Origin: Escherichia phage K1ind2
Strand: one strand, 5' to 3'
Sequence record: NC_041898.1
Length of the DNA stretch: 42,765 bases
Shown piece by piece: positions 1 to 42,765 of this stretch (its first letter is position 1; each line of letters opens with the position of its first letter). The notes below the pieces were generated by a model. That model worked only from the letters and a program-made list of their open reading frames with translations. It ran no database searches and was not told the origin of the DNA. The position numbers were made by a program, and so were the translations under genes.

Positions 1-1251
1 ATGAGTATTCAGCTATCAGCCCCTCAGGCGCTGTTCCTGAACTGCGATAACAAATACAAGGCCTATGTCGGCGGCTTCGGCAGCGGTAAGACGTTTGTAG
101 GCTGTCTGGACCTGCTTACGTTCATGCTTAAGCACCCCGGTACGCGCCTCGGCTACTTCGGCCCGACATACCCGGCTATCCGCGACATCTTCTACCCTAC
201 GTTTGAAGAGGCGGCTAACCTCCTGGGCCTCGATGTTCTGGTTAAATCTGGTGACAAAGAGGTCGTCGTTACGCGGGGCAAGACAGTAATTGGGACTGTA
301 ATCTGCCGCTCGATGGATAACCCAGGCTCTATCGTCGGCTTCAAAATCGCGGCTGCGGTCGTCGATGAGTTGGATGTACTGAGCCGCGAGAAAGCGGAAC
401 TGGCGTGGAACAAAATCGTTGCCCGTATGCGTCTGGTTATCCCTGGTGTAATTAACCACATCTCCGTTACCACGACACCGGAGGGGTTCAAGTTCGTATA
501 CGCCAAATTCAAAGAGAACCCGACGCCGAGTTACTCGATGGTCCAGGCCTCGACTCACGAGAACGCGAGATTCCTGCCGCCGGATTACATCAGCTCGCTG
601 ACAGAGACTTACCCTGCGCAGTTGATTAACGCGTATCTGAACGGCGAGTTCGTCAACCTTACTTCTGGCAGTGTCTACTACGCCTACGACCGACGAAAGC
701 ACCGCAGCAAAGAGACAATTCAACCTGGCGACACTCTGTACATCGGGCAGGACTTCAACGTTACGAAGAACGCCAGCGCCGTGTATGTGCAACGTAAAGA
801 CGGCTGGCACGCGGTGGCAGAACTGAAAGGTCTGTTTGACACGCCAGACACCGTGCGAGTAATTACTGAGAAGTGGAAGTCGCAAGGCCACCGCATCGTC
901 GTTTACCCCGACGCCAGCGGCAAGAACCGCAAAACCAACTCGGCGTCAATCTCTGATATTGCATTACTCCAGCAGGCCGGGTTCGATGTGCGGGCTAAAT
1001 CTGCAAACCCACCAGTTAAAGACCGTGTTTTAGCCGTGAATACCGCACTGGAAAAAGGTAAGCTGTGGGTTAACGACCACTTATGCCCGGAGATAGCCAA
1101 GACGCTGGAGCAACAGGCGTACGACGACAACGGAGAGCCAGCTAAAGACGGCATCATTGACCATATGGCGGATGCGCTTGGCTATCCTGTAGTTTACGAG
1201 ATGCCGGTGGTTAAACCAGTAATCAACATCCCGGTGACTTTCGCACTTTAA
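1..1251 (+). CDS. Terminase large subunit
   Basis: 416 aa ORF starting at window base 1; Walker A-like GGFGSGKT near N-terminus; followed directly by portal-sized ORF. Start may lie at or upstream of the window edge. Confidence 0.85.
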   Translation: MSIQLSAPQALFLNCDNKYKAYVGGFGSGKTFVGCLDLLTFMLKHPGTRLGYFGPTYPAIRDIFYPTFEEAANLLGLDVLVKSGDKEVVVTRGKTVIGTVICRSMDNPGSIVGFKIAAAVVDELDVLSREKAELAWNKIVARMRLVIPGVINHISVTTTPEGFKFVYAKFKENPTPSYSMVQASTHENARFLPPDYISSLTETYPAQLINAYLNGEFVNLTSGSVYYAYDRRKHRSKETIQPGDTLYIGQDFNVTKNASAVYVQRKDGWHAVAELKGLFDTPDTVRVITEKWKSQGHRIVVYPDASGKNRKTNSASISDIALLQQAGFDVRAKSANPPVKDRVLAVNTALEKGKLWVNDHLCPEIAKTLEQQAYDDNGEPAKDGIIDHMADALGYPVVYEMPVVKPVINIPVTFAL

Positions 1252-4614: not shown

Positions 4615-4643
4615 GCGCCCCGCTTTAAGGCGGGGCTTTACTT
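4615..4643 (+). terminator. Terminator-like hairpin upstream of spanin genes
   Basis: gcgccccgc-ttta-aggcggggc stem-loop followed by T-rich run, about 20 nt before the Rz-like RBS (aaagggggaaacATG). Confidence 0.4.
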
Positions 4644-7008: not shown

Positions 7009-7034
7009 GAGAGGGACTTCGGTCCCTCTTTTCA
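7009..7034 (+). terminator. Rho-independent terminator after capsid gene
   Basis: gagggac-ttcg-gtccctc hairpin followed by TTTTC. Confidence 0.7.
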
Positions 7035-11352: not shown

Positions 11353-11357
11353 AACTA

Positions 11358-11380
11358 AGGCCCCGTTTGGGGCCTTTTTC
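11358..11380. terminator. Bidirectional terminator between convergent transcription units
   Basis: aaggcccc-gtttg-gggcctt hairpin with T-run on plus strand; lies between the plus-strand major tail gene and the minus-strand kinase gene; near-identical element at 24008-24031. Confidence 0.65.
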
Positions 11381-13777: not shown

Positions 13778-13807
13778 TTTAAATCCCTCCATTGTTGGTG
13801 TAAGTGA

Positions 13808-13836
13808 ATAGTACCCTATTATATTGGGGTGTGCAA
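13808..13836 (-). promoter_or_regulatory. Sigma70-type promoter (TTGCAC-N17-TACTAT) driving the minus-strand island
   Basis: Minus-strand TTGCAC (plus 13831-13836), 17-nt spacer, TACTAT (plus 13808-13813); 35 of 37 nt identical to the plus-strand promoter at 36087-36123. Confidence 0.6.
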
Positions 13837-14361: not shown

Positions 14362-14726
14362 ACGCGCTGTACAGGTTCGCCACCTACGAGTTTGTGGATA
14401 AGCATAAAATCAGAGAGTTTGATTCTATCGCCGACGGACACGAACAGGCGCTTATCGCGATGGGTGTAATCGATAAGAAAAAACGTGCAGCGCGACGGGG
14501 TGGGCCAGAATGCCCGCCCCTTTTTATATCCACCTTTGAGACGTATTGCGACATTAAGTTTACGCGACACGTGCGCGAGGACGCTGTAGTATTGTTTGCA
14601 AGAGAATCTGTTACGTGGCAAGACCTGAAAGCCTATCTCGATGTTACGCAAAAACAGCTTAGCCTGTTCGAGATAGACATTATCATGGGCTTAGAAGCAA
14701 TCTTTGAAGGTAGAAATCATGGCTGA
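14343..14726 (+). CDS. Tail assembly chaperone -1 frameshift extension (GT-like)
   Basis: The -1 frame opens at 14343 (after TAA at 14340-14342) and overlaps the last 6 codons of the G-like ORF; candidate slip at GGAAAAG (14352-14358) just before the G stop; extension ends at 14726, overlapping the tape measure start. Confidence 0.5.
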   Translation, partial: SITGKVDALYRFATYEFVDKHKIREFDSIADGHEQALIAMGVIDKKKRAARRGGPECPPLFISTFETYCDIKFTRHVREDAVVLFARESVTWQDLKAYLDVTQKQLSLFEIDIIMGLEAIFEGRNHG

Positions 14727-24007: not shown

Positions 24008-24031
24008 TAAGGCCCCAAACGGGGCCTTTTC
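24008..24031. terminator. Bidirectional terminator between tailspike and minus-strand replication module
   Basis: aaggcccc-aaacg-gggcctt hairpin with flanking T-runs; near copy of the terminator at 11358-11380. Confidence 0.65.
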
Positions 24032-30470: not shown

Positions 30471-30499
30471 ACTATAATAGCTAACTATTCAGGTGTCAA
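30471..30499 (-). promoter_or_regulatory. Sigma70-type promoter (TTGACA-N17-TATAGT), copy 2 of 3
   Basis: Minus-strand -35 TTGACA (plus 30494-30499), 17-nt spacer, -10 TATAGT (plus 30471-30476). Confidence 0.6.
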
Positions 30500-32568: not shown

Positions 32569-32597
32569 ACTATAATAGCGAACTATTCACTTGTCAA
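32569..32597 (-). promoter_or_regulatory. Sigma70-type promoter (TTGACA-N17-TATAGT), copy 3 of 3
   Basis: Minus-strand -35 TTGACA (plus 32592-32597), 17-nt spacer, -10 TATAGT (plus 32569-32574). Confidence 0.6.
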
Positions 32598-36086: not shown

Positions 36087-36115
36087 TTGCACACCCCAAC
36101 ATAATAGGATACTAT
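36087..36115 (+). promoter_or_regulatory. Sigma70-type early promoter (TTGCAC-N17-TACTAT)
   Basis: -35 TTGCAC 36087-36092, 17-nt spacer, -10 TACTAT 36110-36115; about 35 nt upstream of ATG 36150; near-identical copies at 13808-13836 (minus) and 37387-37415. Confidence 0.65.
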
Positions 36116-36149
36116 TCACTTATCGAGACGAGACAGAGGAGTGAGGGTT

Positions 36150-36547: not shown

Positions 36548-36726
36548 TGCGAATCCGTATAACTGACCGCAGGCTTGTCCGTATAACTGACCGCAGGCTT
36601 ATAGATTTCGGTATCTCGGTAGGTGATGTTTTTCCGGCGTTCAGCATCAACCATTATGGTTTTATGATTGAGTACAAAGGGTCGTTATTGTTCGTGTATC
36701 GGGATGAATGTGAGGTTCTGGTATGA
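36547..36726 (+). CDS. Hypothetical early protein containing an in-frame 8-codon tandem duplication
   Basis: ORF track 36538-36726 (TTG); ATG 36547 with GAGGGAGG SD preferred (59 aa); encodes RITDRRLVRITDRRLI from the 24-bp DNA tandem repeat. Confidence 0.4.
   Translation: MRIRITDRRLVRITDRRLIDFGISVGDVFPAFSINHYGFMIEYKGSLLFVYRDECEVLV
36554..36601. repeat. 24-bp tandem direct repeat, 2 copies
   Basis: tccgtataactgaccgcaggcttg followed by tccgtataactgaccgcaggctta (47 of 48 positions identical). Confidence 0.9.
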
Positions 36727-37386: not shown

Positions 37387-37415
37387 TTGCACACTAAGAT
37401 AGAATAGGCTACTAT
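37387..37415 (+). promoter_or_regulatory. Sigma70-type early promoter (TTGCAC-N17-TACTAT)
   Basis: -35 TTGCAC 37387-37392, 17-nt spacer, -10 TACTAT 37410-37415; same family as 36087-36115. Confidence 0.6.
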
Positions 37416-37445
37416 TCATTTACACAAGCGAGAGGAGAGACAGAG

Positions 37446-41597: not shown

Positions 41598-41830
41598 TTA
41601 CCAGCATTCCGAACCTGATTAAAGAATTTGGCACGATGGCGGAGACATGCCGACAAACCGGCATCAACGAAATGACGATTGCGAAGTACAGCAAAGACGT
41701 CGATTGTGAACGCCATGTAATTTATAACAATCGTCTGATGACGCACGTTAAGACAAGCCCGGTGTTATTCACGCGCCGGGGTATTACTAAAACAGAGCAA
41801 CGTATTGCTAAAGAGGAGAGTGGGGAATGA
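41570..41830 (+). CDS. Hypothetical protein (possible HTH)
   Basis: 86 aa (alternative ATG at 41594); basic C-terminus. Confidence 0.4.
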   Translation: MDNEEFLRMITSIPNLIKEFGTMAETCRQTGINEMTIAKYSKDVDCERHVIYNNRLMTHVKTSPVLFTRRGITKTEQRIAKEESGE

Positions 41831-41985
41831 TTAGTATTCTGGAGTTCATCGACAACCAAGTTTGGTACGAGCCAGAGTTAAATAAGTATTCAGTTAATGG
41901 GAAAATATTTCGGCGCAAAGGCCAGGCAGAGCGTTACGCAGCTAAACTATACCGCCAGCTTGTCAAGGATGGTTTCTTCAAATGA
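41827..41985 (+). CDS. Small hypothetical protein (52 aa)
   Basis: Hand-found; ATGA overlap with upstream stop. Confidence 0.35.
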   Translation: MISILEFIDNQVWYEPELNKYSVNGKIFRRKGQAERYAAKLYRQLVKDGFFK

Positions 41986-42012
41986 GACTACTAATCATCC
42001 CTAACGCCTGGG

Positions 42013-42056
42013 CCATTCCCGTAGCTAACGACCATTCCCGTAGCTAACGACCATTA
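42013..42056. repeat. 19-bp tandem direct repeat (2 full copies plus partial third)
   Basis: ccattcccgtagctaacga at 42013-42031 and 42032-42050, then ccattacgg. Confidence 0.9.
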
Positions 42057-42105
42057 CGGCGGCGACGGTAAAATAGCACCACGCCACGGCCTATACAACT
42101 GATAC

Positions 42106-42129
42106 AAGCCCTCTACCGAGGGCTTTTCT
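42106..42129 (+). terminator. Rho-independent terminator
   Basis: gccctc-tacc-gagggc hairpin followed by TTTTCT. Confidence 0.65.
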
Positions 42130-42223
42130 GTACATCCCGCCCAATCCCCTTATATAATCCCTTTAGACGCGTAGGGCGCGTCTGATGCGCTCTGATGGTC
42201 AGACGCATATGCAAGGGGATTCT

Positions 42224-42765
42224 ATGAAGCTGAAACTCAAGCAGCCATCGCCAGAGGTGGTGCAAGCTGCACATGAAGAAGCTGTTAGCGCAAACCGCCG
42301 CCGTAAACGACCGCGCGGTAAACAGAGCCTTTATCAATCGTCCCGTAATTCCGCAGCGTTGTGGGACCCGGACTATTGCGACGCGTTAATCGAGTTCTTC
42401 GACCGCACGTCATGGGAACTGGTGCCTACATCTAAGGGTGACGAACGCCCGCTGATTCAGGATAAACCGCCGTCACTGGCCCGCTTTGCCTTACACATCG
42501 GCGTCACTATCCCTATTATTAAGCTATGGCTGCGTGAGATTCCAGCATTCGCAGAAGCCTGGGAGACCGCACAGGCACTGGAAGAGGCATACTTCACTGA
42601 GACGGGGGCCGCGGGCATCTCGGCTACATTTGCTGCCGCTAAGCTGGGCCTCGGCAAAGAGAAACCAGTTGAATCTACTGAAGAGACAGCACCAACTGAG
42701 ATTGTATTCACCGTAGCGGAGCCAGTAGGTAAAATCGTTACCACGAACATGGGTGAGGTAGAGGA
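42224..42765 (+). CDS. Terminase small subunit (putative; 3' end truncated by window)
   Basis: Hand-found ORF open from ATG 42224 (GGGGA SD) to the window end (180 codons, no stop); basic N-terminus then LARFALHIGVTIPIIKLWL; sits where a small subunit gene is expected if the genome is circularly permuted. Confidence 0.55.
   Translation, partial: MKLKLKQPSPEVVQAAHEEAVSANRRRKRPRGKQSLYQSSRNSAALWDPDYCDALIEFFDRTSWELVPTSKGDERPLIQDKPPSLARFALHIGVTIPIIKLWLREIPAFAEAWETAQALEEAYFTETGAAGISATFAAAKLGLGKEKPVESTEETAPTEIVFTVAEPVGKIVTTNMGEVE

Follow-up and report, generated by a model that had tools for sequence, protein, structure and literature searches.

Introduction

The pac sites of the phages SPP1, P22 and Sf6 lie in or next to the gene for the small terminase subunit (terS), that of Sf6 inside the gene. 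Control at the level of RNA is represented by IS10 and IS50, where translation of transposase from read-through transcripts is reportedly inhibited by fold-back (the work of Davis, Simons and Kleckner in 1985 and of Schulz and Reznikoff in 1991), and RNase III processing is familiar from the lambda N leader and the T7 early mRNAs. Here we compare with these and other described systems the DNA just upstream of terS in Escherichia phage K1ind2 (NC_041898.1), where a putative terminator, a putative promoter and a leader of two hairpins precede the gene. Throughout, the window is the whole stretch of DNA analysed, 42,765 nucleotides (nt) of one strand, 5' to 3'.

Two further kinds of structured leader resemble this locus. 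Secondary structure at the 5' end, as in the stabilising 5' untranslated regions (UTRs) of ompA and papA, stabilises RNA and hinders RppH and 5'-end-dependent RNase E (PMC3997798), and the putL element of HK022 consists of two stem-loops beginning at +3 of a sigma-70 transcript (PMC9378689). Among phages related to K1ind2, P1-like headful packaging has been described for Jerseyvirus K47, from PhageTerm analysis and a circular restriction map (PMC10783031), and headful packaging for Dhillonvirus Opt-212 (PMC9022532), while Kagunavirus fBC-Eco01 has no defined termini (PMC9825357). In the literature we found no mapped pac site or first cut for Kagunavirus, Jerseyvirus or Dhillonvirus.

The window is a complete Kagunavirus (K1ind-like) genome, circularly permuted and opened at the ATG of terL, an opening that is a convention. 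Over the 1366 nt compared around the locus it is 97% identical to Escherichia phage K1ind3 and 80-95% identical to about 150 other Kagunavirus and Jerseyvirus genomes. The segment of interest, 41986-42223, fills the gap between the last annotated upstream open reading frame (ORF; 41827-41985) and terS (42224 onward). A first-pass annotation, made from the letters alone, had read this segment as an activator-dependent late promoter and/or a pac-like, terminase-binding region; its promoter and terminator stand, but its pac site is unsupported, and the tandem repeat that it noted is a mutation in a gene. On balance, we consider it slightly more probable than not that a terminator, a sigma-70 promoter and a structured leader form one module that opens the packaging and structural operon, and that the adjoining strain-specific mutation is separate from it.

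Results

We aligned the regions upstream of terS from 50 IMG/VR loci and several GenBank records. In the window, the module and the start of its first gene comprise the following features:

42106..42133, plus strand: very likely intrinsic terminator of the upstream rightward operon; stem 42106-42113/42118-42125, loop TACC, T-tract TTTTCTGT
42129..42134, plus strand: -35-like hexamer TGTACA, overlapping the terminator T-tract; 10/12 together with the -10 hexamer at an 18-nt spacer
42143..42165, plus strand: two overlapping anti-Shine-Dalgarno (anti-SD) copies, AATCCCCTTA at 42143-42152 and AATCCCTTTA at 42156-42165; predicted 5' strand of a closing helix, P1
42153..42158, plus strand: -10 hexamer TATAAT; TATAAT or TACAAT in every lineage examined
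42165..42183, plus strand: leader hairpin 1; arms 42165-42172/42176-42183, triloop AGG at 42173-42175; begins at the predicted transcription start
42185..42208, plus strand: leader hairpin 2; 42185-42189 and 42191-42195 pair with 42199-42208, bulged C at 42190, triloop TGG at 42196-42198
42208..42226, plus strand: terS ribosome-binding region; SD GGGGA at 42215-42219, ATG at 42224-42226; predicted 3' strand of P1
42224..42765, continuing over the window junction, plus strand: terS (small terminase); its stop codon TGA at window positions 2-4 overlaps the terL ATG

Two inverted repeats stand between the -10 hexamer and terS. Both had been noted in the first-pass annotation, at 42164-42182 and 42184-42207; the first (AGACGCG-taggg-CGCGTCT) sits 1 nt further on, at 42165-42183, and the second (ATGCG(C)TCTGA-tgg-TCAGACGCAT) at 42185-42208, where it is imperfect, with a bulged C at 42190. 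Folded together they reach -22.1 kcal/mol (z = -3.2), and the same two adjacent hairpins with 3-nt loops appeared in 17 of 18 sequence variants that were folded one at a time. Over 24 distinct sequences, 96.7% of the cells in the stems are paired, compared with 80.6% in shuffles (an earlier sequence set gave 98.7%), and 11 of the 18 pairs have changed on both sides (52 cells). Not one of 500 shuffles reached any of the five measures used, and sliding the partner columns lowered pairing to 15-55%. The stems of hairpin 1 illustrate this drift, reading AGACGCG/CGCGTCT, AGATGGC/GCCGTCT, AGGTGG/CCACCT, GTGGCCC/GGGCCGC or GGGGCGGGCC/GGTCCGCCTC in different lineages.

The deviations in the stems are mostly G·U on the plus strand (38 cells, against 14 non-pairs). 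On the opposite strand such cells would read as A·C mismatches, and in duplex DNA they would not pair, so they point to a plus-strand RNA and not to a DNA palindrome. The loops are conserved: that of hairpin 1 is AGG, GGG or UGG (AGA once), that of hairpin 2 is UGG in 23 of 24 sequences, and the distance from loop to loop is fixed at 17-18 nt. A sequence-specific DNA site should show the opposite of this pattern of variable stems and conserved loops, which again suggests that the hairpins act as RNA. The paired structure emerges directly from these comparisons, and we are highly confident that, as judged from its pattern of substitution, it is a structure of the RNA.

A covariance model built on Kagunavirus and Jerseyvirus sequences detects the motif once in the window, at 81 bits. 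Another model picks up lineages on which it was not trained (L070, L160-L165 and L146; E-values from 1e-2 to 3e-14), with all hits on the plus strand just upstream of terS; it gave no hit in distant TerS loci, a T1-like locus or HK022, and the motif is missing in the more distant TerS relatives (30-35% identity, L082-L093). The genome contains no further copies beyond chance. Rfam 15 offered no family match, only two chance-level hits on the minus strand (E 0.5-2.8). Judged by these alignments and searches, the leader is an uncatalogued RNA motif of Guernseyvirinae and Dhillonvirus with strong covariation support.

Other functions suggested by individual sequences were considered and rejected. 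An attenuator-like alternative pairing (42178-42185 with 42199-42206) is not kept in Jerseyvirus; there, hairpin 2 itself compensates for the change. Inspection by eye for lambda boxA/boxB, CsrA GGA sites, a hammerhead-like CUGAUGA core and an upstream ORF from an AUG in the apex of hairpin 2 found none that is conserved across lineages.

Upstream of the leader, the terminator proposed in the first-pass annotation at 42106-42129 was borne out. The hairpin AAGCCCTC-tacc-GAGGGCTT at 42106-42125, followed by TTTTCTGT, folds at -14 kcal/mol (z = -4.7; none of 200 shuffles folds as well) and lies after the last ORF of the plus-strand operon, with an 8-bp stem, a 4-nt loop and then UUUUCUGU. A simple terminator scanner missed it because the stem extends into the T run. 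At the same position other lineages have stems of CCCTC/GAGGG, CCCGC/GCGGG or CCTGCC/GGTGGG, compensatory changes that keep the structure and not the sequence. An intrinsic terminator is thus highly likely, and it would end the upstream operon. Many relatives have an altogether different sequence further upstream, and their match to the window sets in precisely where the terminator stem begins. From there (42106 onward) the layout of terminator, promoter and leader is found in Kagunavirus, Jerseyvirus, Cornellvirus and phiEap-2, in the phages Hafnia TS33, Pantoea AH01, Klebsiella VLCpiS11a/37P2 and Serratia Tsm2, in an unassigned IMG/VR lineage and in Dhillonvirus.

A different design occurs about 60-120 nt upstream of terS in one IMG/VR contig (3300045988_119589, L083; TerS 34% identical). 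Here TTATAAT is followed by a G+C-rich hairpin with a T-run (GCGGATCGAAAGAGCCGCTTTTTT) and then by terS, so that the promoter comes before the terminator, an order reminiscent of lambda PR'-tR'.

The perfect -10 hexamer reported in the first-pass annotation at 42151-42156 is present, but at 42153-42158, as 42151-42156 reads TATATA. It had been described as having no recognisable -35, which does not hold: TGTACA, matching TTGACA at four of six positions, lies 18 nt upstream, and TGTACA-18-TATAAT gives 10/12 in a promoter scan. The same TGTACA at 18 nt is found in Kagunavirus and Jerseyvirus with spacers of different sequence and equal length, most other Guernseyvirinae have TTGCCT, TTGCCA or TTGCTA (TTGCNN) at 17 nt from TATAAT, and Dhillonvirus has an extended -10, TGnTATAAT. 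Hexamers and spacing are therefore kept across genera while the spacer diverges, which is the signature of a sigma-70 promoter. On this pattern an ordinary sigma-70 promoter fused to the preceding terminator is likely. The earlier idea of an activator-dependent late promoter thus keeps its promoter but loses the dependence on an activator, as most relatives have an ordinary -35 or an extended -10. Nothing requiring an activator was found at the terS promoter in the lineages compared, where the sequence upstream of the terminator is mosaic, hence the lack of a conserved upstream site.

The genome holds no further copies of this TAYAATCC promoter class beyond chance. Its early promoters carry another signal. 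The palindrome AATAGT-N4-CTATT occurs five times in the window (0.04 expected), at 13807-13820, 30476-30489, 32574-32587, 36103-36116 and 37403-37416, and in the strongest consensus promoters, TTGACA-17-TATAGT, at 30471-30499 and 32569-32597, the -10 (TATAGT) is overlapped by one of these copies. From these positions it looks like an operator for a repressor of the early promoters. The published "phage RNAP promoter" consensus of fBC-Eco01, tgAATAGTa-ccTATTat (PMC9825357), is probably the same palindrome, mislabelled. It is not present at the terS promoter, which would accordingly be regulated differently from the early ones.

Host RNA polymerase would start from TGTACA-18-TATAAT at about A42165, the seventh base after TATAAT and the first paired base of hairpin 1. 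Hairpin 1 begins 5-8 nt past the -10 in those lineages that were inspected by eye, the start site being a prediction. RNA modelled from this start consists of hairpin 1 without any 5' overhang, 1 nt, hairpin 2 and then an unpaired SD and AUG. A new transcript would therefore open with two adjacent hairpins bearing NGG and UGG triloops and leave the terS start single-stranded; as it has no unpaired 5' nucleotides, RppH and 5'-end-dependent RNase E should attack it poorly. In this respect the leader may resemble the ompA/papA stabilisers (PMC3997798), with a hairpin and 0-2 unpaired 5' nt at the predicted start in the lineages examined, and it may be expected to affect RNA stability. That 5'-end protection is the main role of the hairpins is a serious possibility to which we give a little less than an even chance.

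Conserved loops on covarying stems are also the classic signature of loop-specific protein recognition, and two similar loops at a fixed 17-18 nt would suit a dimer. A trans-acting protein might accordingly bind the hairpins by recognising their NGG/UGG loops and set the timing or level of terminase synthesis; candidates are an N-like antiterminator of the phage, which one of the many small upstream ORFs could encode, a translational repressor (possibly TerS regulating its own synthesis) or a host RNA-binding protein. However, no candidate protein has been identified, the loops contain neither a CsrA GGA nor a boxB GNRA-like pentaloop, and Dhillonvirus and Guernseyvirinae have few proteins in common (PMC10783031), so that a candidate encoded by the phages would have to be a conserved protein such as TerS. 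We regard such a protein site as unlikely. In themselves, the conserved loops point to a specific partner of some kind.

A partner common to all these phages is the host RNA polymerase, and conserved loops with fixed geometry call for a conserved partner. The twin hairpins could thus work in cis like put, which promotes terminator read-through by way of the beta' zinc-binding domain of RNA polymerase: the RNA would bind the very polymerase that transcribed it and make it resistant to pausing and termination, so that it reads the late operon of about 24 kb past internal terminators with no phage protein. The position and architecture agree with HK022 putL, two adjacent stem-loops that directly follow a sigma-70 promoter and open a long, terminator-containing operon with no dedicated antiterminator protein known. 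Here, the plus strand of the late operon has intergenic terminator-like hairpins (at 2756, 4617, 7009, 11357 and 14497) that no obvious promoter follows. The annotation of a curated Kagunavirus genome lists neither a Q/N-like antiterminator nor a late activator, and Kagunavirus hairpin 1 and putL both contain AGACG...CGCGUCU.

The resemblance nevertheless has limits. The phage element consists of simple hairpins in about 44 nt, compared with about 70 nt for put, which has a triplex, bulges and non-canonical pairs; it also occurs only once per genome. With covariance model R1, putL reaches 4.6 bits (E = 3.6), which is not significant, similarity to putL reached p of about 0.01 in one of 14 comparisons, and none was seen for putR or for other lineages. 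Nor is placement at +1 required for put, as putR lies about 270 nt downstream of its own start. Membership of the put family was rejected, there being no significant sequence or profile similarity to putL or putR as retrieved from HK022, and by this comparison the relation to put is one of architectural analogy, not of family membership. We consider it improbable that the hairpins work in this way and, equally, that the leader represents a new class of protein-independent, RNA polymerase-modifying antiterminator in virulent Guernseyvirinae and Dhillonvirus siphoviruses, analogous to put and unrelated in sequence, by which these phages, not known to have a Q or N protein, would read through the terminators of their 24-kb structural operon. 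Should the partner prove to be RNA polymerase, put-like RNAs would then number just two families.

The strong terminator-like hairpins of the structural operon lie on the plus strand at 2756-2771, 4617-4636, 7009-7030, 11357-11376 and 14497-14520, following the portal gene, the major head gene and elsewhere; the hairpin at 11357 is bidirectional, as is a further one at 24009-24028. In the Jerseyvirus, phiEap-2 and Cornellvirus lineages the left arm of hairpin 2 reads TATGAT (about +27 to +32; for example L042, L055 and L060). This is -10-like at five of six positions and might make the polymerase pause near the promoter in a sigma-dependent manner, an effect proposed for putL. TATGAT is not universal; Kagunavirus has TCTGAT and Dhillonvirus GCCGAT.

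We then consider RNAs that enter the module from upstream. The two anti-SD copies are direct repeats that flank or overlap the -10, both are complementary to the SD region AAGGGGATT, and only transcripts begun further upstream would contain the 5' strand of P1 that they form. In the minimum free energy (MFE) structure of modelled read-through RNA, the -10/discriminator region pairs with the terS SD/AUG in most lineages, giving a closing helix round the twin hairpins. The partners differ between lineages (AATCCC/GGGATT, CAATCC/GGATTG, AATCTCCT/AGGAGATT, AATCCT/AGGATT, GAACC/GGTTC and TATAATCCCAT/ATGGGGGTTATA), and in some Kagunavirus variants P1 is a continuous 14-bp helix (UAUAUAAUCCCUUU/AAGGGGAUUAUAUG in L001). 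An alignment-free test over 11 lineages gave -9.7 kcal/mol for cognate promoter/SD duplexes and -7.1 kcal/mol for non-cognate ones (p = 1.4e-4); with the last 3 nt of the -10 plus 8 nt the value was p = 4e-5, and with the 8 nt after the -10 alone p = 7e-4. The promoter and the SD are thus directly seen to co-evolve in this set. Mean ensemble accessibility of the SD/AUG is 0.61 in promoter-initiated RNA and 0.39 in read-through RNA.

RNAs leaking through the terminator would carry the anti-SD strand, close P1 round the hairpins and mask the terS SD/AUG, whereas promoter-initiated RNAs, which lack that strand, would leave the terS start free behind a protected 5' end. Masked read-through RNAs should be poorly translated for terS and terL, since terL is coupled to terS by the ATGA overlap and both terminase subunits would be affected. 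From these models we give fold-back masking of terS in read-through RNA about an even chance of being real; an effect on translation is what the pairing would predict. The scheme is like that reported for IS10/IS50: the ribosome-binding site (RBS) is complementary to a segment that immediately precedes the local transcription start, so that only RNAs started outside carry this segment and are masked. Here that complementarity co-evolves across 11 lineages. The phage locus differs in that the anti-SD is the promoter's own -10/discriminator with the two strands bridged by the conserved twin-hairpin motif, and in that the module guards terminase genes behind a terminator and not a transposase at the end of an element, with an effect that is moderate and predicted.

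P1 and the stacked hairpins might alternatively form an RNase III processing site, cutting of read-through or long precursors then producing a mature, translatable terS 5' end. The 14-bp P1 of L001 could stack on a hairpin and so approach the length needed by RNase III, and P1 co-evolves. Yet P1 is short or interrupted in many lineages, and the conserved promoter already supplies a 5' end, so that we hold this explanation to be very improbable.

The terS gene itself occupies the last 542 nt of the window and the first four bases, "atga". Its product matches phrog_3064 "terminase" in PHROG (E 4.7e-73) and shows weak profile similarity to Sf6 gp1 (E 0.003); the Dhillonvirus TerS is only about 34% identical. 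An in-frame ATG at 42185, inside hairpin 2, lies 39 nt upstream of the terS ATG that is preceded by the SD. Many annotations and record starts place the start of terS at this ATG or its equivalent (window 42185-42223), among them L028, L036, L045, L047, L048, NC_021775 gp31 and Bas74_0001. A longer TerS from ATG 42185 is ruled out by a 1-nt indel between phiEap-2 (L055) and its close relatives (L078-L080) and by the Dhillonvirus arrangement, which is out of frame; the extension is therefore not coding, and segment 42185-42223 is non-coding. By this comparison, public records that start terS at the upstream ATG in hairpin 2 are probably misannotated.

The tandem repeat upstream of the module belongs to a different story, for which three further features are needed:

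41982..42102, plus strand: footprint of an ancestral 33-codon gene (phrog_32259), which without the insertion ends at TGA 42100-42102, just before the terminator
41982..42047, plus strand: truncated small ORF of 21 codons, MRLLIIPNAWAIPVANDHSRS*, a frameshifted version of the 33-codon gene
42013..42050, plus strand: 19-bp tandem duplication, two exact copies, single-copy in relatives

The first-pass annotation had counted 2.5 tandem copies of a 19-bp unit. The repeat is there, with the 19-mer CCATTCCCGTAGCTAACGA at 42013-42031 and 42032-42050 followed by 5 nt (CCATT) of a third unit, although Tandem Repeats Finder (TRF) reports 2.3 copies (42013-42055, period 19, 100%). The 19-mer has no other match in the window even at 3 mismatches (0.00 expected by chance). 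In 32 relatives it is single-copy within an intact 33-codon ORF, MRLLIIPNAWAI(A/P)VANDHYGGDGKRAPRHGLYN, which ends a few bases before the terminator; in the window the small ORF opens at 41982 with an ATG that shares bases with the stop codon of the ORF before it (ATGA). Among 27 distinct sequences of this ORF, variable sites fall 14/12/27 on the three codon positions, synonymous outnumber non-synonymous codon differences by about 2:1, and the other two frames are closed in all 27. Its product matches phrog_32259 over the full length (E 7.8e-18), and tblastn with the 33 residues finds 361 phage records, T1-like Drexlerviridae included. The duplication shifts the frame in the window and leaves a 21-residue product, and its junction was found only in K1ind3 among 50,697 phage records. 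It is virtually beyond doubt that the repeat is a duplication inside a gene. Single copy and an intact ORF in relatives, with the junction in K1ind3 only, mean that it is a recent, strain-specific mutation and not a functional array, unrelated to the neighbouring module. It frameshifts the last gene of the upstream rightward operon and, on this reading, plays no role in packaging or transcription.

The 33-residue gene, which is evidently dispensable in K1ind2/3-type phages, has a hydrophobic N-terminal half and a conserved DHYGGDGKRAPRHG C-terminal half. It is 64-76% identical between Guernseyvirinae and T1-like Drexlerviridae (e.g. L096 1501-1599) and also occurs in 17 records labelled Campylobacter phage. 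It does not travel with the leader, as in T1-like phages the ORF is surrounded by other small genes a long way from terS. Another perfect tandem duplication (36554-36600, 24 bp x 2.0, TCCGTATAACTGACCGCAGGCTTG) sits between the leftward replication genes and the rightward small-gene operon.

These results bear on the proposal that the region is a pac site, with small terminase binding the repeats and/or the palindromes as DNA and headful packaging starting here. Headful packaging in K47 and Opt-212 and the lack of fixed termini in fBC-Eco01 would fit, as would the position: characterised phages have their pac sites in or adjoining terS, and SPP1 pacL and the P22 and Sf6 pac sites are alike with this region in lying on the 5' side of terS in a headful phage. 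But the repeat is confined to two isolates, the window phage and K1ind3, lies inside a gene and is single-copy in all other relatives, and among phages with the same TerS no repeated recognition sequence is conserved. The palindromes behave as RNA hairpins, with stems that are not conserved in sequence and pairing kept through G·U, so that in contrast to the SPP1, P22 and Sf6 sites it is RNA pairing that is conserved here, not DNA sequence. TerS is weakly similar to gp1 of Sf6, a phage whose pac is intragenic.

Where public records have their first or last base inside the region, its position is conventional (RBS, ATG or longest-ORF ATG). The equivalents of window positions 42105, 42139, ~42158, 42185, ~42214 and 42224 were rejected as physical genome ends on this ground (ATG 42185, RBS, terS ATG), and four Dhillonvirus records that start at TATAAT were likewise rejected, Dhillonvirus being reported as headful. 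Nothing in the sequence speaks for a pac site here, which we think very unlikely.

Discussion

The layout of the locus, in which a likely terminator is fused to a likely sigma-70 promoter whose transcript would begin with a covarying pair of hairpins, is consistent with a module that ends one operon and opens the next. Several points weigh against this reading or parts of it. The alignments used for covariation were fitted by a covariance model and the sequences are related, both of which inflate the counts somewhat; the independent folds and the discovery of lineages on which the model was not trained reduce these concerns. The sole Kagunavirus transcriptome (K1B4, PMC12645636) is without start-site resolution or usable per-gene detail. 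With regard to fold-back masking, shuffling the 5' part at matched composition also lowers SD accessibility (0.48, against 0.39 observed), and three of the 11 lineages (Dhillonvirus L070, L081 and Pantoea AH01) lack the accessibility effect, so that while the co-evolution of the -10/discriminator with the SD appears real in these alignments, the predicted masking effect is moderate. Finally, conserved triloops and a 17-18 nt spacing on drifting stems are unexplained by a generic 5' stabiliser or spacer: stabilisers of the ompA/papA type need no particular loop, whereas the phage leader keeps two hairpins, NGG/UGG triloops and fixed spacing. This conservation suggests that the leader has an additional, specific function beyond 5' stabilisation.

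For annotation, the start of terS can be corrected in many records, and a tempting "pac site" feature is removed, the tandem repeat being a gene-disrupting duplication. If fold-back masking is true, the -10/discriminator of a promoter would double as an anti-Shine-Dalgarno sequence, terminase would be made only from the correct transcript, and the arrangement would offer a reusable principle of insulation. Guernseyvirinae and Dhillonvirus are widely used in phage therapy and synthetic biology, and the leader motif heads their packaging and structural operon, with about 440 public phage records containing similar DNA.

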